IMG/VR virus record: IMGVR_UViG_3300029042_000248
Direction: 5' to 3' (one strand)
Length of the DNA: 33,844 nt
Origin: a virus
Taxonomy: Duplodnaviria; Heunggongvirae; Uroviricota; Caudoviricetes
Shown here: positions 1 through 8,346 of the stretch, piece by piece
Layout: each line of letters opens with the position of its first letter
Position numbering within the stretch: position 1 is the stretch's first letter
Translations under genes and position numbers: made by a program
Notes under the pieces: generated by a model
What the model saw: only the letters and a program-made list of their open reading frames with translations
Databases searched by the model: none
What the model was told of the DNA's origin: nothing

Positions 1-525
1 TTATACAGCTTTCTTTACATCGTTTTCTCTTACAGGGAAATTATGTTCTTTGCCTTCATACTGAGACAAAATCTCTCTCACTTTTTCCGGTGGTAATGCC
101 TGAAGAGTTTGCAGGGTTTTCTGTTGCTCCACAGTAATCCCTAATGCCTCTAATGCCTTATCTTTACTGACAATTGTAGGCATAAGTCCTTTAATCCCTG
201 CTACACGAATGATCTCCACAGCTGCGGCCTGCTCATCTGGTGTTAAGAAGCTCATTGCATAAATTAGCCTCTCATCAACTGTATGGGCGATTGATGTATG
301 CACTGGTTTATCAGAAAGTGAGGCTCCTTTAATGGCCCTGCGTGTTTCTTCTGGCAGACTGTTGATGTGATACTCATAAGCGACACCTTTCCCACCGTGA
401 CGCTGACGTTTTACCCAATCTTCCGCCACAGCTTTCCTGGTAATGTTAGTCGCCAACTTTGGTACACCAGGCATCCCTTCCAGCTCTTTCGCATTAAACC
501 ATTCTTTGATTTCAAAAGACATCAT
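1..525 (-). CDS. c: Immunity repressor c (174 aa, D108-type)
   Basis: Leftward ORF diverging from ner across the operator region; its N-terminus ([26 protein letters not shown]) parallels the N-terminus of the transposase ORF at 940 ([26 protein letters not shown]), the known repressor/transposase shared DNA-binding domain; length matches my recollection of D108 c. Confidence 0.85.
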   Translation of the reverse strand: MMSFEIKEWFNAKELEGMPGVPKLATNITRKAVAEDWVKRQRHGGKGVAYEYHINSLPEETRRAIKGASLSDKPVHTSIAHTVDERLIYAMSFLTPDEQAAAVEIIRVAGIKGLMPTIVSKDKALEALGITVEQQKTLQTLQALPPEKVREILSQYEGKEHNFPVRENDVKKAV

Positions 526-710
526 TTAAAATCCTAGTGATTTCAATAGAGACAAAATAAATTCATATAAAAATCATGCCGTTATATGAAATCATGGCAA
601 ATCCTTTCAAATCACTGTTGATTTGGAAGTGATTCCACACTACATTGCACGATATGCCGTGAGCTACTTTATAGCGTAGCTCACGGGGGAATCTGAAAGG
701 ATTACATGAA
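526..710. promoter_or_regulatory. Operator/divergent promoter region (Pc/Pe, repressor operators; also expected to act as the transposition enhancer)
   Basis: 185-bp AT-rich gap between divergent c and ner with several inverted repeats (e.g. aatcactgttgatt); function inferred from Mu biology. Confidence 0.6.
657..686. promoter_or_regulatory. Perfect 11-bp inverted repeat CCGTGAGCTAC-N8-GTAGCTCACGG; candidate Ner operator
   Basis: Arms 657-667 and 676-686 are exact reverse complements with an AT-rich 8-bp spacer, about 25 bp upstream of ner; matches my recollection of the D108 ner operator architecture. Confidence 0.55.
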
Positions 711-932
711 ATGCATATGAATAAAAGAACTAACCGCCAAGATTGGCACAGAGCTGACATCGTTGCAGAGCTACGAAAACGCAATATGTCACTAGCTGAA
801 TTGGGAAGATCTAATCATCTTTCGTCTTCAACATTAAAAAATGCTTTGGATAAGAGATATCCGAAAGCGGAGAAAATCATTGCAGATGCACTGGGAATGA
901 CACCGCAAGATATTTGGCCGTCTCGATACTAG
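711..932 (+). CDS. ner: Ner-family early transcriptional regulator (73 aa)
   Basis: Small HTH protein ([23 protein letters not shown]...IWPSRY) directly upstream of transposase A; alternative start at 717. Confidence 0.85.
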
Positions 933-939
933 GTGCGCT

Positions 940-2928
940 ATGAAAGAATGGTATACAGCAAAAGAGTTGCTCGGTTTGGCAGGTTTACCAAAGCAAGCAA
1001 CTAACATTACACGTAAGGCACAAAGAGAAGGCTGGGAGTTCAGGCAGGTTGCAGGGACTAAAGGTGTATCATTTGAATTCAATATCAAATCATTCCCTGT
1101 CGCATTACGTGCTGAAATTCTGTTGCAACAAGGGAGAATTGAAACCAGTCAGGGGTATTTTGAAATCGCCCGCCCCACGCTGGAAGCCCATGATTATGAT
1201 CGTGAGGCACTGTGGAGCAAATGGGATAACGCCAGCGATTCCCAGCGCAGACTTGCTGAAAAATGGTTGCCTGCGGTTCAGGCTGCAGACGAAATGCTGA
1301 ACCAGGGGATTTCAACGAAAACGGCATTTGCGACCGTTGCAGGACATTACCAGGTCAGCGCATCCACTTTGCGAGACAAATATTACCAGGTACAGAAGTT
1401 TGCGAAGCCTGACTGGGCGGCTGCGCTTGTTGATGGACGTGGTGCATCCCGTCGCAACGTTCACAAAAGTGAATTTGACGAGGATGCCTGGCAGTTTCTG
1501 ATTGCAGATTATCTGCGACCAGAAAAACCCGCCTTTCGCAAATGTTATGAGCGTCTGGAACTGGCAGCCCGCGAGCATGGCTGGAGTATTCCCTCCCGTG
1601 CCACGGCCTTTCGCCGGATTCAGCAACTGGACGAGGCAATGGTTGTTGCCTGCCGTGAAGGTGAACATGCACTGATGCATCTGATACCGGCACAGCAGCG
1701 AACTGTGGAACACCTGGACGCCATGCAGTGGATCAACGGCGACGGTTATCTGCATAACGTCTTTGTACGCTGGTTTAACGGTGATGTGATCCGCCCGAAA
1801 ACATGGTTCTGGCAGGATGTGAAAACCCGAAAAATTCTGGGCTGGCGCTGCGATGTGAGCGAGAACATTGATTCAATTCGCCTCTCGTTCATGGATGTTG
1901 TGACTCGCTACGGTATTCCAGAGGATTTTCACATCACCATTGATAACACCCGTGGTGCTGCGAATAAATGGCTGACGGGAGGCGCGCCCAATCGCTACCG
2001 CTTTAAGGTAAAAGAGGACGATCCAAAGGGAGTGTTTTTACTGATGGGTGCGAAAATGCACTGGACAAGCGTTGTTGCCGGTAAAGGCTGGGGCCAGGCA
2101 AAACCTGTTGAACGTGCTTTCGGTGTTGGTGGGCTTGAGGAATACGTTGATAAGCATCCGGCACTGGCTGGCGCATATACGGGGCCAAATCCGCAGGCAA
2201 AACCTGATAACTATGGCGACCGCGCTGTTGATGCAGAGCTGTTTCTGAAAACCCTTGCCGAAGGTGTGGCGATGTTCAATGCCAGAACAGGCCGTGAAAC
2301 AGAAATGTGCGGGGGCAAACTCTCGTTTGATGATGTTTTCGAGCGTGAATACGCCAGAACGATTGTGCGTAAGCCAACCGAAGAACAAAAACGGATGCTG
2401 TTACTGCCTGCCGAGGCGGTGAACGTTTCACGCAAAGGCGAGTTTACGCTTAAAGTTGGCGGCTCCCTTAAAGGCGCGAAAAACGTTTATTACAACATGG
2501 CGTTAATGAATGCCGGAGTGAAAAAAGTTGTGGTCAGATTTGATCCACAACAGCTACACAGCACGGTTTATTGCTACACCCTGGACGGTCGGTTTATCTG
2601 TGAAGCGGAATGTCTGGCACCTGTTGCGTTTAATGATGCTGCGGCAGGCCGTGAATATCGCCGCCGCCAGAAACAACTGAAATCTGCAACTAAAGCAGCC
2701 ATTAAGGCGCAGAAACAAATGGACGCGCTGGAAATTGCTGAACTGCTGCCGCAGATAACCGAACCAACAGCACCAGAATCAAGGGTTGTTGGTATTTTCC
2801 GGCCTTCCGGTAACACGGTGCAGGTGAAATACCAGGACCTCGATGATGAATATGAAACTGATCGTGATGAATATCTGAATCATTCGCTGGATATTCTGGA
2901 ACAGAACAGACGTAAAAAAGCCATTTAA
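940..2928 (+). CDS. A: Transposase A (MuA-type DDE transposase, 662 aa)
   Basis: Length and position; candidate DDE residues in [16 protein letters not shown] and PVERAF contexts; N-terminal enhancer-binding domain homologous to repressor c. Confidence 0.95.
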
Positions 2929-2966
2929 TTAACGTTTAAACAAAATTTAATTACGAGGTTATTCAG

Positions 2967-3905
2967 ATGAATATTTCCGATATTCGCGCAGGACTGCGCA
3001 CGCTTGTAGAAAGTGAAAAAGCTACTTATGCACAAATTGCCCGCGAGTCCGGCGTGGCCGCAGGAACGTTAAGCGCATTCGTGAATAACAAGTACAACGG
3101 CGACAATGAACGTGTTGCGCAGACGCTGGAACGCTGGCTGGAGAACTATCACCGTGCCGCAGAGCTGCCAGAACCACCGCGTTTTGTGGAAACCAGAACA
3201 GCACGCCAAATCTGGACGAGTATGCGTTTTGCCAGTCTGACTGAAAGTATTTCTGTTATCTGCGGTAATCCAGGTGTGGGAAAAACTGAAGCGGCCCGCG
3301 AATTTCGTCGCACCAATAACAATGTCTGGATGATCACCATTACCCCATCCTGTGCCAGTGTTCTGGAATGCCTGACGGAACTGGCTTATGAACTGGGGAT
3401 GAATGACGCACCGCGCCGCAAGGGGCCACTCTCCCGCGCTTTGAGACGCCGCCTTGAAGGTACGCAGGGGTTGGTCATTATCGATGAAGCTGATCATCTT
3501 GGCGCTGAGGTTCTGGAAGAACTCCGCCTGTTACAGGAATCCGCCCGTATTGGCCTTGTTCTGATGGGGAATCACCGTGTTTATTCAAACATGACCGGTG
3601 GTAACAGAACGGTTGAATTTGCCCGCCTGTTTTCCCGTATTGCCAAACGGACGGCAATTAATAAAACCAAAATTGATGATGTAAAAGCCATTGCGGATGC
3701 CTGGCAAATTACCGGCGAAAACGAGCGGGAATTATTACAGCAGATTGCACAAAAACCAGGTGCGCTTCGCATCCTGAACCACTCGCTGCGCCTTGCGGCC
3801 ATGACCGCCCACGGCAAAGGTGAACGTGTTAATGAAGATTATCTGCGTCAGGCTTTCCGTGAATTAGACCTCGACGTTGATATTTCAACCCTGCTGCGCA
3901 CGTAA
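2967..3905 (+). CDS. B: Transposition ATPase / target DNA activator B (312 aa)
   Basis: Walker A GNPGVGKT and Walker B LVIIDEAD motifs; position immediately after A; 312 aa as in MuB. Confidence 0.95.
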
Positions 3906-3918
3906 GGAGAGCGAAATC

Positions 3919-4146
3919 ATGATGTCACGGAATATCAAAATGGCAACGGAAGTAAAGAGCTGGTTACAGGAGCGCGGCAGCCACGTCAACGAATCCTGGC
4001 TGGGCGTGGCCCGCCCGGTGCTTGAAATTACCTGCCCGCCACCGGAGCTGGTCAGAAACGCTGTCAGGATTATGGAGCATAAATCAGGGGTTGCCCGTTC
4101 CGTATGGACGGCCCGCCTTAATGGTTGCCAGATTATCTGGCGTTAA
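3919..4146 (+). CDS. Small early protein in the kil position (75 aa); possible Kil-like host division inhibitor
   Basis: First ORF after B with GGAG RBS and ATGATG start; assignment by position only. Confidence 0.4.
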
Positions 4147-4178
4147 TAACGGCTTATTTATTTGTGAGGAATAACAAA

Positions 4179-4448
4179 ATGGCAAAAGTAATCTTTGAAT
4201 TTAACCGCATGGAAGATGTTGAGTTTCAGAAAAAAGGAGGTTTCTTTGTAGGAATGAGTGTGCAACTGGAAGAACAGTCTCCTAAGGAGCAAACCGGACC
4301 GCATGACGTGATGGCAGGCATTATCAAGAGCATGGCTCCTGAAATTATTGAAAAAGCAACCCAGGAGTTGTTGAAGTCAGCCAGAGAACTTGGGCTGGAA
4401 GCCGAAGGCGAGTTATTCCGGTATAACCCGGATGCAGCCAAACATTAA
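4179..4448 (+). CDS. Hypothetical early protein (89 aa)
   Basis: ORF with upstream GAGGAA; starts MAKVIFEF; no recognisable motif. Confidence 0.4.
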   Translation: MAKVIFEFNRMEDVEFQKKGGFFVGMSVQLEEQSPKEQTGPHDVMAGIIKSMAPEIIEKATQELLKSARELGLEAEGELFRYNPDAAKH

Positions 4449-4464
4449 TTTCAGGGAAGGAGGC

Positions 4465-4755
4465 ATGATGATAATCACTCGCAAAAGATGGTCACGCGAA
4501 GACCGGGAATTTATCGAAGCCAGTGTCGGGAAAATGACCGTCGAGGAAATGGCGAAAAAACTGAACGTTGCCCCAACCGCCCTACAGGCACATGCCAGAA
4601 GGCACGGAATATCGTTGTGTGCATACCGGGTCAGTGAGCACGACAAATATTTGTGTCGTGAACTTTATAAAGAAGGGCTGGCTATTCATGTCATTGCCCA
4701 AAAGATGGAATTAAGCAATCGTGCTGTATCCAGCATTGTATACAGCGAATATTAA
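4465..4755 (+). CDS. Hypothetical early protein with HTH-like segments (96 aa)
   Basis: GAAGGAGG RBS then ATGATG; HTH-like segments (TVEEMAKKLNVAPTALQAHARRHG and LAIHVIAQKMELSNRAVSSIV). Confidence 0.4.
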   Translation: MMIITRKRWSREDREFIEASVGKMTVEEMAKKLNVAPTALQAHARRHGISLCAYRVSEHDKYLCRELYKEGLAIHVIAQKMELSNRAVSSIVYSEY

Positions 4756-4775
4756 TTAACAGGAGCTTTATTTAT

Positions 4776-5300
4776 ATGGCTAAACCAGCAAAACGAATCA
4801 AGAATGCCGCAGCGGCTTATGTTCCACAGTCCCGCGATGCCGTGGTATGTGATATCCGCCGGATTGGTGACCTGCAACGCGAAGCGGCACGACTTGAAAC
4901 GGAAATGAATGACGCTATCGCTGAAATTACAGAGAAATACGCCTCACAGATTGCGCCGCTAAAAACCAGTATCGAAACCCTTTCAAAAGGCGTTCAGGGA
5001 TGGTGTGAAGCGAACCGCGACGAACTGACGAACGGCGGCAAGGTGAAGACGGCGAACCTGGTAACCGGCGATGTGTCATGGCGTCAGCGCCCACCATCGG
5101 TAAGTATTCGCGGTGTGGATGCGGTGATGGAAACGCTGGAGCGTCTTGGCCTGCAACGCTTTATTCGTACGAAACAGGAAATCAACAAGGAAGCGATTTT
5201 ACTGGAACCGAAAGCGGTCGCAGGTGTCGCCGGAATTACAGTTAAATCAGGCATTGAGGATTTTTCTATTATTCCGTTTGAACAGGAAGCCGGTATTTAA
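4776..5300 (+). CDS. gam: Gam (host-nuclease inhibitor / DNA-end binding protein, 174 aa)
   Basis: Length equals Mu Gam as I recall it, position after kil-region ORFs, coiled-coil-rich sequence. Confidence 0.8.
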   Translation: MAKPAKRIKNAAAAYVPQSRDAVVCDIRRIGDLQREAARLETEMNDAIAEITEKYASQIAPLKTSIETLSKGVQGWCEANRDELTNGGKVKTANLVTGDVSWRQRPPSVSIRGVDAVMETLERLGLQRFIRTKQEINKEAILLEPKAVAGVAGITVKSGIEDFSIIPFEQEAGI

Positions 5301-5397
5301 TACCACTACAAATATTTAATTAATCCACTCTCTTTTAATTATGGCGCGATGCGTCAGGGGATTGCTCGCGCCTTATTCGACCATAAAGGATATTTAA

Positions 5398-5949
5398 ATG
5401 ACGAAATACGCCTATTTTAAGCTGTCTGATAAGACAAGCCGTATGTATATGAAACGCTGGGAGACAGATATTTATCCGGTTCGTGTAAAGCTTGTTCGTT
5501 CATTACAACGCGAACTTGGTGCTGCTGGCATCAGTCTTGTCAGAGGTCTGAAAGTTGCACGAGTGGAAAGCGTCTGGTTCGGGATGCAGCCGTCGGGGTT
5601 CTGGAAAGTAAAAAGCAGTAACCTTTTTGTTGATGGTTACCAGTTCTGGGAGGTTATGCCGGATGTAACGACAGTTCGGGGAAAAAAGAGAGAAAAGCTC
5701 ATCGCGGGATATGAAGAACAACTGACAAATTACCCTGAATTTTCAGTATGGCTGTGTAACGAACTGAATATTGATTTCACACTGAATATCTTTGATATCC
5801 GGTCTGTGTGGGAAATGTCATGGTCACGCGATAGGTTCAGCATTTTATTTAAAGTCCAGGTTTTTTCTGACGGTGAAGTGCATGGGCATATTCCTGCTGA
5901 ATGCCAGCGTATTAAACATTCTGAATTTGTGGCGCTGACGGAGGAATAA
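5398..5949 (+). CDS. Hypothetical protein (183 aa), AT-rich accessory cluster
   Basis: Long ORF in a markedly AT-rich segment; no recognisable motif. Confidence 0.5.
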   Translation: MTKYAYFKLSDKTSRMYMKRWETDIYPVRVKLVRSLQRELGAAGISLVRGLKVARVESVWFGMQPSGFWKVKSSNLFVDGYQFWEVMPDVTTVRGKKREKLIAGYEEQLTNYPEFSVWLCNELNIDFTLNIFDIRSVWEMSWSRDRFSILFKVQVFSDGEVHGHIPAECQRIKHSEFVALTEE

Positions 5950-5952
5950 CCG

Positions 5953-6186
5953 ATGTTTGTGATTGACTCAAAAGTTTTGAATGCTGTCAGCACATTACTA
6001 CGAACTCACGGACGTCTGACCTGTGGTGTTCTGGCGGACAAAATGAGAATGCCAGTCTCTGCAATGGTGTACTTCCTGCGTGATGCGGTTGATGCCGGAG
6101 TGCTCACCGAATGTAACGGATTTTATGACATCCCACGCTCCCGACCGACTCCGGCGGAAACACAGGAAATCAGCGAGCATGATTAA
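5953..6186 (+). CDS. Hypothetical small protein, possible winged-helix (77 aa)
   Basis: ORF 4 nt after the previous gene; helix-rich, winged-helix-like by eye only. Confidence 0.4.
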   Translation: MFVIDSKVLNAVSTLLRTHGRLTCGVLADKMRMPVSAMVYFLRDAVDAGVLTECNGFYDIPRSRPTPAETQEISEHD

Positions 6187-6376
6187 GTCACTTGGCTTTG
6201 TCCTGCTGGTTGGCACCTGTGGGAATGATGCCTGCGATGCCATTCCGGTAACGGAAAAAATCTGGCCCACAGAACAGGCATGTATGCAGGTGATGGAGCG
6301 CATACAAAAACGTTATCCCGGTGAAATCTTTTATTGCGAAGAGGTATTAAGAAATGAAAATACAGATGATTACTGA
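6179..6376 (+). CDS. Hypothetical small Cys-containing protein with hydrophobic N-terminus (65 aa)
   Basis: In-frame ATG at 6179 overlapping previous stop (ATGATTAA); MIKSLGFVLLVGTCGNDACD then two more Cys; possible signal peptide, imperfect lipobox. Confidence 0.35.
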   Translation: MIKSLGFVLLVGTCGNDACDAIPVTEKIWPTEQACMQVMERIQKRYPGEIFYCEEVLRNENTDDY

Positions 6377-6689
6377 TGCTGATTTAATGGCTGCAACCTT
6401 AATTTCCAGTGGCATGTCAGAACAAAAGGTAAATGATTTTCTGGATAATGTCGTATACCAACGCTATGAGCAGGCCAGAGAAAATTTAATTTCAGAAAAA
6501 CGCACGATGATTGCCGAATCATTAAGCCCAGCCTGGATTATTGAGGAATTACGAAAAATCACTGCCAGCCAGGATAAAGTAGCGGCAGTTGCCGCCCTCG
6601 ATGTGCTACAGCGAATGAGTAAAGAGCTATTCAACACTGAATTAATTTTTAAATCCGGGGGACAAAATGAGTCGCACATCGCTTATTAA
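6354..6689 (+). CDS. Hypothetical protein (111 aa)
   Basis: AT-rich ORF overlapping gemA start; no recognisable motif. Confidence 0.45.
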   Translation: MKIQMITDADLMAATLISSGMSEQKVNDFLDNVVYQRYEQARENLISEKRTMIAESLSPAWIIEELRKITASQDKVAAVAALDVLQRMSKELFNTELIFKSGGQNESHIAY

Positions 6690-7218
6690 GTTAATTCATG
6701 TCGCCCGTCGTGATCTACAACTCGACGATGACACTTACCGCGCCTTTCTGGTGCAGTGCACGGGCAAAACCAGTTGCCGCGAGCTGTCCGTTGCACAACT
6801 GGAACAAGTGCTCGATGCCATGAAAGAGCGCGGTTTTAAAAAGCAGAATAAACATCCCCGCCGTCGCTTTAAGGGGCATGTCACACCGCGCGAGAAGATT
6901 TATAAAATCTGGCAGCAGATGTTTCTTGATGGTTTCGTCTCCGATATCAGCGACGCTGCGCTGGACAAATACGTTGAACGCCTGACGGCCAGACGTAATG
7001 GCGGTCAGGGTGTTTCCACGCTGGCCTGGTGTCACGGGGAATCGTTGCAGGTTGTGCTCGAAACGCTCAAACAGTGGCATATGCGCTGCATCCGTGAAGC
7101 CTTTGCCCGACATGGTGTGCCTTTACCTGTAAGCCCATCCGGGCGGGAACTGCGCGGCTATGATGCACTGACCAGTGCATATGCCCGCGCACGAAACAGC
7201 GGGAGAATTGCTGTATGA
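6667..7218 (+). CDS. gemA: GemA-like protein (183 aa)
   Basis: Size matches Mu GemA as I recall it; immediately upstream of and translationally coupled (ATGA) to the Mor-family gene. Confidence 0.7.
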   Translation: MSRTSLIKLIHVARRDLQLDDDTYRAFLVQCTGKTSCRELSVAQLEQVLDAMKERGFKKQNKHPRRRFKGHVTPREKIYKIWQQMFLDGFVSDISDAALDKYVERLTARRNGGQGVSTLAWCHGESLQVVLETLKQWHMRCIREAFARHGVPLPVSPSGRELRGYDALTSAYARARNSGRIAV

Positions 7219-7664
7219 AACAGATGAAAGAGCAGGATTTATTCGAAGACTTCCGGGACGACAGCGTTCTGGAATACCTTAACGATTACCAGGAAAACAC
7301 GGCTTATCCGGCGTTACTTTCTGAACTGAACGCACTGCTGCGTAAAGAACTGGCCCGGATTGGCGCAGACCCTGCCCATTCCCTTGAGCTGGTTGTGGCG
7401 ATTTGTCGCCATATCGGCGGGATGCAGGTTTATGTTCCGAGGGGGAATATTCTGGAGAATCTTGTCCGGGATATGCGTATCTGGCGTGATTTTAACGGCC
7501 ATAATATTCCTGAACTGGTTCAGCGTTACAGAGTGACGTATAAAACCGTCTACAAGGCCATCAAACGGATGCGGCGTCTGGAGCGTAATAAATACCAGCC
7601 GGATTTGTTCTACCACTCCCCGAACCTGCCTCACCCCGTTCGTCGTCCGCCACGACGCCCTTAA
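7215..7664 (+). CDS. mor: Mor/C-family transcriptional activator (149 aa)
   Basis: C-terminal region GGMQVYVPRGNILENLVRDMRIWRDFNGHNIPELVQRYRVTYKTVYKAIKRMR typical of the Mor/C family; position after gemA. Confidence 0.8.
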   Translation: MKQMKEQDLFEDFRDDSVLEYLNDYQENTAYPALLSELNALLRKELARIGADPAHSLELVVAICRHIGGMQVYVPRGNILENLVRDMRIWRDFNGHNIPELVQRYRVTYKTVYKAIKRMRRLERNKYQPDLFYHSPNLPHPVRRPPRRP

Positions 7665-7668
7665 TCAA

Positions 7669-7694
7669 TGAAGCCGGTAAATCCGGCTTTTTTT
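7669..7694 (+). terminator. Palindrome+T7 element, copy 1 (tgaAGCCGGtaaatCCGGCTttttttt): candidate intrinsic terminator and/or activator-binding site of a late promoter
   Basis: 7-bp stem, 5-nt loop, then 7 T; the identical 26-mer recurs at 15382-15407. Confidence 0.6.
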
Positions 7695-7749
7695 ATGCCT
7701 CCGGCACCATGAAGCAGACCACGTTTAAATCTGCTTCACAGGTGCTTTT

Positions 7750-8346
7750 ATGGAAAATCAAAAATTCTCCCCGGCCTTTGAACATGCGCTGAATTTTATT
7801 CTGCGTCCTGATATCGAAGGCGGCTATGTCAATGACCCCACTGACCGTGGCGGCGAAACAAAATACGGCATTTCTGACCGCCGCGACGGTGTGATTGACG
7901 GCAAAACCGATGTCAACGGCGACGGCAAACCAGATACCCGCATTAAGGATTTGACCCGCGAACAGGTTGCGCAGATTTACTGGCGCGATTACTGGCTGCT
8001 TGCCGGGTGTGATCAGTGGCCTGATGGTGTGGCGCTCTTTGTGTTTGATGCGGCTGTTCAGCATGGCGTGGAGCAAGCCGTCAAGTTTTTACAGGAAGCC
8101 GCTGATGTGTCTGCCGATGGCATCATCGGCCCGCGTACCCGCAAGGCTGTGAGCCTGTCCACCCCGGACTGGCTGCTGTCCCGCTGCATTGTTCGCCGTT
8201 GCCGCTTTTATGCGGGCCTCATCAAATCAAAACCCGCTCGTGGCAAATACCTGAACGGCTGGTTTAACCGCATGGAAGAACTGACCGACGCCTGTCTGGA
8301 AATCATCGATACCCCTCTGGGCATCATGTCCGCCACGCGGGGGTGA
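7750..8346 (+). CDS. Endolysin, glycoside hydrolase family 108-like with C-terminal peptidoglycan-binding region (198 aa)
   Basis: N-terminal motif FEHALNFILRPDIEGGYVNDPTDRGGETKYGIS characteristic of GH108 lysins; no N-terminal TM/SAR segment. Confidence 0.75.
   Translation: MENQKFSPAFEHALNFILRPDIEGGYVNDPTDRGGETKYGISDRRDGVIDGKTDVNGDGKPDTRIKDLTREQVAQIYWRDYWLLAGCDQWPDGVALFVFDAAVQHGVEQAVKFLQEAADVSADGIIGPRTRKAVSLSTPDWLLSRCIVRRCRFYAGLIKSKPARGKYLNGWFNRMEELTDACLEIIDTPLGIMSATRG

Follow-up and report, generated by a model that had tools for sequence, protein, structure and literature searches.

A mosaic accessory interval between gam and gemA in the early region of a Mu-like prophage

Introduction

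What occupies the interval between gam and gemA in a Mu-like prophage, and are the genes found there an ordinary part of the early operon or inserted cargo? The semi-essential early region of Mu-like phages is long and poorly conserved and encodes small uncharacterized proteins (PMC8705779); the early transcript spans these largely uncharacterized genes, which are weakly transcribed in lysogens (PMC3820752). We analyzed this interval in the Caudoviricetes record IMGVR_UViG_3300029042_000248, whose whole stretch of 33,844 nucleotides (nt) is referred to here as the window. Positions 5301-6689 hold four open reading frames (ORFs), which we call genes A, B, C and D (respectively, 183, 77, 65 and 111 amino acids (aa); Table 1). 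An initial annotation, made from the sequence alone, had described them as an AT-rich accessory cluster in the Mu semi-essential region, had recognized none of the four proteins and had proposed that they form a candidate moron or anti-defense cargo. Our results favor another answer: with a probability of about 0.78, the segment belongs to the early operon of a Mu-like Escherichia prophage, of which it is the variable and dispensable part; its four genuine genes come from a shared pool of cassettes and would act as early, non-essential modulators.

Results

Gene content and exchange between gam and gemA

The segment lies on the early strand between the transposition genes A and B and mor, flanked by gam and gemA, which is the position of the Mu-type semi-essential region, and its content is also of this type: small, poorly conserved genes that differ between related phages. 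The four same-strand ORFs were present as initially described, gam, gemA and mor lie in the flanks, and the gene order of the left 8 kb of the window is that of a Mu-like transposable phage. The Pfam families Phage_Mu_Gam (PF07352), GemA (PF06252) and Mor were also matched in the flanks of public contigs with identical genes. The corresponding region of Mu (gam gp10 to gemA gp16) presents the same position, strand, flanks, post-gam hairpin and small, tightly packed genes. However, Mu carries gp11, gp12, gp13, gp14 and the antisense gp15 in an interval of 1911 bp (49.6% guanine-cytosine (GC) content), whereas the interval of the window is 1370 bp long (44.0% GC), lacks gp12-gp15 and shares with Mu only gene B, which corresponds to the first ~60 residues of gp11. 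Genes A, C and D have no counterpart in Mu or D108. The four genes are thus not a conserved early set of these two phages, and the accessory label stands.

Further counterparts were found in the Shigella phage SfMu and in an E. coli prophage. ORF11 and ORF14 of SfMu have been reported as unique to that phage, without homologs in Mu or D108 (PMC4406740). We found that ORF11 (DUF5420) and ORF14 belong to the same families as A and D and follow gam in the same relative order. SfMu differs from the window in the divergence of these proteins (54% identity over the 183 aa of A and 41% for D), in keeping full-length gp11-like, gp12, gp13, gp14 and gp15 homologs, and in lacking gene C. The prophage of E. 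coli FDAARGOS_943 (NZ_CP065615.1) presents the same four families in the same order (DUF5420-179 aa-65 aa-107 aa-gp16), and its C, D and gemA products are 94-97% identical to those of the window. It differs by a full-length gp11-family gene (179 aa, with Gp11_C) and by a DUF5420 allele of the SfMu type, 54% identical to A.

We then compared the interval across 80 IMG/VR loci retrieved with Gam and the other loci that we fetched. Both gam and gemA were located in 81 loci, 45 of which formed a close set with Gam at least 90% identical (the window is included in both counts); a GemA search of a one-genome-per-species collection returned only nine distant loci. The length of the interval ranged from 386 to 2962 bp among the 81 loci. 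The 45 close loci presented about 33 gene orders, assembled from about 10 recurrent families, of which gp11 was found in 40 loci, D in 26, C in 22 and A in 12. The unit of exchange is the single gene and not the four-gene block, and the block 183/192-77-65/60-111 itself recurs under different upstream contexts. Unrelated proteins were found to carry identical C-terminal tails: PAECQRIKHSEFVALTEE, ...VLR(N/D)ENTDDY (before D) and ...GQNESHI.. (before gemA). These sites fall at 5893-5949, 6344-6376 and 6660-6689 in the window and were also seen in three other loci (L020, L022 and L025). The tails are shared because the 3' end of each gene reaches into the conserved start region of its downstream neighbor or lies directly against it, and the aligned sequences suggest that such short conserved joints are crossover points of the mosaic. 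The last 18 residues of A, invariant among alleles that are otherwise ~50% different, may likewise be read as a recombination joint beside the next gene. The cluster is an ordinary mosaic accessory region, one more combination of catalogued cassettes, and adds no new family.

An additional gene was observed in one contig with a 183-77-60-111 cluster (L099): a 131-aa antisense gene between D and gemA (3700-4095, minus strand), at the place where Mu carries the antisense gp15.

Coding status of the four genes

Each of the four proteins matched a PHROG family: phrog_2260 for A (E = 2e-36), phrog_1949 for B (E = 7e-32), phrog_16556 for C (E = 7e-28) and phrog_1988 for D (E = 5e-43). The matches are full length for A, C and D and cover only positions 1-68 of the 176 positions of phrog_1949 for B; no PHROG family was matched by the minus-strand ORFs of the segment. 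The exact proteins were found on 46 (A), 61 (B), 60 (C) and 58 (D) public contigs, mostly from E. coli and some from E. marmotae and Salmonella. The pairwise ratios of nonsynonymous to synonymous substitution rates (dN/dS) relative to homologs in the fetched loci were all below 1: 0.13-0.30 for the N-domain of B, 0.03-0.37 for C, 0.10-0.26 for D and 0.44-0.54 for A, the latter based on fewer than 10 substitutions (for comparison, 0.04-0.14 for gam and gemA). A Shine-Dalgarno-like motif precedes every one of the four starts by 4-9 nt (for D, GAGG 9 nt before the ATG at 6354), and the reading frames overlap by 8 nt between B and C (6179/6186), 23 nt between C and D (6354/6376) and 23 nt between D and gemA (6667/6689). 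Gene C is counted from the ATG at 6179 (the mechanical ORF begins at the GTG at 6080) and gene D presents an alternative start at 6366, which yields 107 aa. Judging from these sequence properties, the four ORFs are genuine protein-coding genes under purifying selection.

The profile searches that the initial annotation had proposed returned families, and none of the database, profile and fold comparisons of the four proteins assigned a function. All four PHROG families are labelled "unknown function", and in scans of the four proteins against PADLOC, Pfam, PHROG and NCBIfam, no family with a known function was matched significantly. The PADLOC defense models presented no family for A, B and D and only PDC-S06 for C (E = 0.021). 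Still, two of the proteins can be named: the exact sequence of A is called "DUF5420 family protein" by NCBI, and B is Mu gp11 minus its C-terminal domain.

Gene B and the loss of Gp11_C

Gene B is 79% identical to residues 1-57 of Mu gp11, and 79-90% identical across Mu, SfMu gp12 and E. coli homologs, with 26 invariant alignment columns in its N-domain. The 13 residues at its C-terminal end match those that close the 179-aa E. coli homolog. The Pfam domain Gp11_C (PF25754), which covers residues 90-167 of the full-length Mu gp11 (E = 8e-41), is absent from B. Window positions 4700-6143 and 6151-7300 align to positions 2503-3935 and 4255-5404 of the FDAARGOS_943 locus (L002), the closest complete-genome prophage used for this alignment, and ~320 subject bases are skipped. 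When searching a 191-nt junction query against 5,426 complete E. coli genomes, we obtained 15 full matches, each in two pieces spanning 503 bp, so the deletion amounts to 312 bp, or 104 codons, and is in frame. It keeps the native stop and the overlap with C. These alignments indicate that B is the N-terminal domain of Mu gp11 with Gp11_C deleted.

The junction query never matched unbroken in the 5,426 complete genomes, and the deletion allele was found in 0 of the 71 complete E. coli genomes carrying the locus. In a large collection, 88 blocks contain the exact 77-aa protein, always in the context 183/192-77-65/60-111, with varying genes upstream of gam and two DUF5420 alleles, and its cluster at 90% identity contains 16 distinct sequences of 75-77 aa. 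The N-domain may adopt a winged helix, a putative assignment drawn from sub-threshold Pfam matches to HTH_20 (E = 0.039) and HTH_CodY (E = 0.025). A sequence search of Mu gp11 against PDB chains gave nothing significant, and the profile of its N-domain gave only chance matches among PDB sequences, to chains of macrophage migration inhibitory factor (MIF).

In public assemblies, several frameshifts and no fewer than three distinct in-frame deletions were observed in the gp11-family gene (proteins P0089, P0092, P0094, P0098, P0104 and P0111). In every one of these independent truncation alleles the first ~60 residues are retained and Gp11_C is missing, in whole or in part.

Gene C

Gene C is 94% identical to a 65-aa protein of an E. 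coli prophage and is absent from Mu, D108 and SfMu. Outside Mu-like phages, homologs with 43-54% identity were found in Aeromonas, Yersinia and Hafnia phages. In the Aeromonas phage pAEv1818 (L101 3501-3686) the homolog lies between recT and xis/int, and in the Yersinia phage vB_YenM_30.14 (L102 3495-3665) it lies among small early genes that encode a Lar restriction-alleviation protein, a theta-subunit homolog and methyltransferases. The presence of these homologs in non-transposable temperate phages indicates that the gene moves between unrelated phage lineages. The neighbors of the pAEv1818 homolog include recT/recE-like genes in addition to xis/int.

The initial annotation had noted cysteines and a hydrophobic N-terminus in C, and both are present. 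The AlphaFold model of C, built from an alignment (predicted local distance difference test score (pLDDT) 87), presents the order strand-strand-helix-strand, and the hydrophobic N-terminus is modelled as a strand of the core sheet (residues 3-14; pLDDT 83-89). Residues G6, F7, L9, L10 and V11 and the four cysteines (14, 19, 35 and 53) are invariant across homologs whose overall identity is 48%. Because invariant hydrophobic residues argue against a signal peptide, we consider that the N-terminus is, according to the model, a conserved beta-strand and not a signal or membrane segment. The four invariant cysteines may form a metal site, and C is probably a cytosolic protein.

It is barely credible that C would instead be a small secreted lipoprotein, such as a Llp/Cor-like superinfection-exclusion factor blocking an outer-membrane receptor. 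A hydrophobic stretch at residues 5-12, with Lys3 on its N-terminal side, does precede Cys14, and some homologs fit a lipobox with LLVSAC or LLVSSC; but VGTC in the window and VSPC in the Aeromonas homolog both miss the pattern [LVI][ASTVI][GAS]C, several homologs lack a basic N-region, the would-be signal peptide measures just 11-13 residues, and no PHROG match to the Llp or Cor families was obtained. With no lipobox in the window sequence, hydrophobic residues more invariant than in signal peptides and the same residues placed in a core strand, we rejected this interpretation.

We found little that relates C to proteins of known function. In the comparison with DUF1482, 3 of 11 members of the C family were matched (E ~0.01), and a sequence search against PDB chains gave nothing significant. 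The model presents a weak fold resemblance to the anti-CRISPR AcrIC8 (PDB 8g9s_A), which works by wedging into type I-C Cascade (bioRxiv 10.1101/2023.08.05.552134). The two proteins share no sequence homology (8% identity; searching the PDB sequences up to E = 10 did not retrieve AcrIC8), and this model-based resemblance may be taken as a lead only.

Genes A and D

The alignment with SfMu gp11 identifies A as a divergent homolog of the DUF5420/SfMu ORF11 family. Its match to the Pfam model of DUF5420 (PF17457; 14.6 bits, E = 0.028) falls below the gathering threshold of 26 bits; SfMu gp11, which RefSeq names DUF5420, likewise gave no Pfam match at E up to 0.01, and the 192-aa allele found at the position of A does carry PF17457. 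The family is narrow, with 12 clusters at 90% identity, all enterobacterial. The AlphaFold model of A (12-sequence alignment) reached a pLDDT of 89 and a predicted template modelling (pTM) score of 0.80, and a Foldseek comparison with predicted viral structures retrieved three unnamed phage proteins of similar length (template modelling (TM) score 0.71-0.76; 14-19% identity). No significant match was obtained when searching the sequence against PDB chains, and no mention of the term DUF5420 was found in the literature searched. A is a phage-restricted, DUF5420-like alpha/beta protein.

Gene D is 94% identical to an E. coli prophage protein. A HMMER search of 1.84 billion representative proteins with D retrieved six relatives, all of ~100 aa, and isolated phages with a relative are limited to SfMu and Mu-like Yersinia phages. 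These searches point to D as a member of the SfMu ORF14 family that is confined to Mu-like phages. A sequence search against PDB chains gave nothing significant. D also matched a GpsB model with 23 bits relative to a cutoff of 91, which we treated as coiled-coil noise.

The AT-rich block and hairpin downstream of gam

The gap of 97 bp between gam and gene A (5301-5397) and its hairpin are exactly as initially described. The initial annotation had treated the hairpin and the AT-rich stretch as features of the cluster, an assignment that the comparison of relatives contradicts. The AT-rich block is near-identical in Mu, SfMu and more than 30 distinct loci. The hairpin and the block are present together in every locus with Gam at least 75% identical, remain recognizable in one group at 63%, and are kept irrespective of the downstream gene, including in Mu, D108-like phages and SfMu. 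Since both are conserved with gam whatever follows, they constitute an element of the gam flank and not accessory cargo; family-specific sequence begins immediately 3' of the hairpin.

The hairpin follows the consensus GGCGYG...CRCGCC with a conserved GCGTCAGGG loop region. Together with the AT-rich block it spans 5301-5376 in the window and ~6330-6400 in Mu (L001), and the element is present in most fetched loci. A 105-nt fold of the gap reached -21.5 kcal/mol (z = -2.5), and 1 of 200 shuffles was as good. The outer stem is maintained by two compensatory changes (CG to UA in four sequences and AU to CG in three) and the inner stem is poorly kept. Rfam scans of the whole window and of positions 5200-6800 (E up to 1) returned no family. 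The hairpin has no T-run and is therefore not like an intrinsic terminator. It may act in RNA processing or stability, in pausing, or as a recombination boundary at the DNA level. An autoregulatory link between this palindrome and the putative gp11 winged helix was considered and dropped: the palindrome is present in five close loci without a gp11-family gene.

Base composition and transcription signals

The segment is AT-rich, in agreement with the initial annotation: its GC-content is 44.0%, whereas the window as a whole reaches 54.6%, its late region 56.5% and the early region at 1-5300 48.2%, and local values (100 bp) of 34-40% were observed at 5301-5450, 5701-5800 and 6301-6450. Only 0.5% of the stretches of the same size present a GC-content as low; apart from the segment, they are confined to the c/ner left end. 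The value falls within the range of the gam-gemA intervals of close relatives (41.7-49.9%), and low GC-content is a property of several of the gene families themselves (on average 41.9% for the D family; 43.7% for the Mu gp14 family). Part of the difference relative to Mu arises because the GC-richer Gp11_C and gp12 sequences are absent here.

The gap had also been said to contain a promoter-like stretch. Our scan of 5301-5397 for the sigma-70 consensus identified no site, the best pair of hexamers matching 8 of 12 positions. On the plus strand, 5301-6689 was devoid of promoter-like and terminator-like sites, and the first terminator-like site was found at 7670-7690, after mor. Directly visible in the sequence are thus genes of the early strand with overlapping stop and start codons and without any predicted internal promoter or terminator.

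Discussion

As a variable part of the early operon, the segment would consist of interchangeable cassettes that recombine between two anchors, gam with its AT-rich block and hairpin on one side and gemA on the other. By analogy with Mu, the genes would be transcribed from the early promoter Pe within a long ner-to-mor transcript and translated by coupling, and their products would be synthesized early, during the first minutes of the lytic cycle, as well as at low level in lysogens. B would represent the surviving, probably DNA-binding, N-terminal domain of gp11, and C would travel among the early recombination and anti-restriction regions of unrelated temperate phages. Early in infection, the four products may then modulate host or DNA transactions without being essential. 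Several points weigh against this interpretation. The transcription of the segment from Pe is carried over from phage Mu, and the functional role of each of the four proteins is putative. The dN/dS ratios of gene A are based on few substitutions, B could be an inert remnant and not a working protein, and the hairpin could be a processing or attenuation site that sets the expression of the segment apart from that of gam.

The term cargo, as used by the initial annotation, covers several claims that fared differently. The genes are accessory and variable, with about 33 orders in 45 loci, whereas the two more specific claims found no such support. The morons of lambdoid phages (Juhala and Hendrix) are reportedly autonomous promoter-gene-terminator inserts of deviant GC-content. 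The segment resembles them in its deviant GC-content (the lowest 0.5% of stretches of its size), in the AT-rich stretch and hairpin at its upstream border, which could serve as controls, and in the presence/absence polymorphism of its genes between close relatives. It differs from them by having neither a promoter nor a terminator of its own: the genes are embedded in the early operon and overlap it, D running 23 nt into gemA, with no terminator-like site 3' of them before 7670 and no promoter-like site in the gap. Moreover, the block and hairpin accompany gam in Mu and all relatives, whatever lies downstream, and exchange proceeds by single genes. It is highly improbable, therefore, that the cluster is an autonomous insert expressed from the repressed prophage for the benefit of the host. 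We consider it unlikely that the genes are anti-defense cargo, with at least one protein, most plausibly C, inhibiting host immunity and the loss of Gp11_C representing an escape from a sensing defense. Such a role would agree with the variable, AT-rich and early-expressed nature of the segment, with the C homolog lying amid early Lar restriction-alleviation and methyltransferase genes in the Yersinia phage, and with several independent truncations of the gp11 family that all keep the N-domain. We found no positive evidence for it, however: C does not resemble AcrIC8 in sequence, E. coli does not usually carry a type I-C CRISPR system, the family scans returned no significant family of known function, and truncations are equally expected from the neutral decay of prophages.

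Decay could also account for the whole cluster, if this were a degrading region of a defective prophage, with the 77-aa gene as a pseudogene remnant and no current function. The deletion eliminates an entire Pfam domain from gp11, the family includes further alleles with frameshifts or truncations, and the allele is missing from all 71 complete genomes with the locus. We nonetheless consider this scenario very unlikely. The deletion is in frame, so that B still ends at the native stop and still overlaps C; the allele occurs in the 88 collection blocks, under different upstream contexts and with two DUF5420 alleles; its cluster holds 16 distinct sequences of 75-77 aa; the N-domain presents dN/dS ratios of 0.13-0.30; and, over the first ~12 kb of the window, the neighboring, early and lysis genes that we examined are intact. 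A variable part of a functional early operon remains the interpretation that we favor. As a long shot, C could be a new inhibitor of host defense or DNA repair (an Acr-like binder), the repeated loss of Gp11_C an escape from a sensing host system, and the post-gam hairpin an unrecognized element that adjusts accessory-gene dosage through RNA processing or attenuation.

The distinctive points of the cluster are limited to the domain-deleted gp11 allele, the cross-lineage distribution of C and the conserved post-gam hairpin. For annotation purposes, the 77-aa ORF should be labelled as a deletion allele of Gp11 reduced to its N-domain and the 183-aa ORF as DUF5420-like, and the hairpin should be assigned to the gam flank. 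The gam-gemA interval constitutes a compact and well-anchored hot spot of gene exchange in Mu-like prophages, and the number of gene orders found between its fixed anchors recommends it as a source of small early phage proteins that can be mined for host-interaction functions. A literature search on the old markers arm and sot returned only unrelated papers, and we therefore propose no link between these ORFs and the classical arm function.

Surrounding genes

Table 1. Coordinates of the genes and other features in the left part of the window.
Feature	Position	Strand	Remark
Repressor	1-525	-	
ner	711-932		
Transposase A	940-2928		
B (transposition gene)	2967-3905		
kil	3919-4146		
phrog_2230 gene	4179-4448		
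gp9-like D5-type regulator	4465-4755		
gam (host-nuclease inhibitor)	4776-5300	+	Conserved; borders the variable interval on the left; 92.5% identical (aa) to Mu Gam
AT-rich block 3' of gam	5301-5342	+	Conserved across Mu-like phages
GC-rich hairpin/palindrome GGCGCGA-N16-TCGCGCC	5343-5372	+	Left edge of the variable DNA
Gene A, 183 aa	5398-5949	+	Divergent member of the DUF5420/SfMu ORF11 family
Gene B, 77 aa	5953-6186	+	Mu gp11 N-terminal domain with 13-aa C-terminal tail, Gp11_C deleted
Junction of the 312-bp in-frame deletion in the gp11-family gene	6144-6153	+	From the alignment to the FDAARGOS_943 prophage
Gene C, 65 aa	6179-6376	+	Four-cysteine protein; start overlapping the stop of B
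Gene D, 111 aa	6354-6689	+	SfMu ORF14 family; overlapping C and gemA
gemA	6667-7218	+	Conserved; borders the variable interval on the right; 82% identical to Mu GemA
mor	7215-7664		
Terminator-like hairpin with T-run	7670-7690	+	Directly after mor
GH108-family lysin	7750-8346		

The interval between transposition gene B and gam (3906-4775) is also mosaic: it contains kil, the phrog_2230 gene and the gp9-like regulator, without homologs of Mu gp6 and gp8. Upstream of gam, the gene set differs among the contigs with an identical four-gene cluster that we compared (L093-L100). On the other side, positions 7665-8346 hold the terminator-like hairpin that follows mor and then the lysin, in place of the Mu gp18-gp21/C block. 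With this GH108 lysin instead of the Mu block, the middle region is organized unlike that of Mu and like that of the FDAARGOS_943 prophage.

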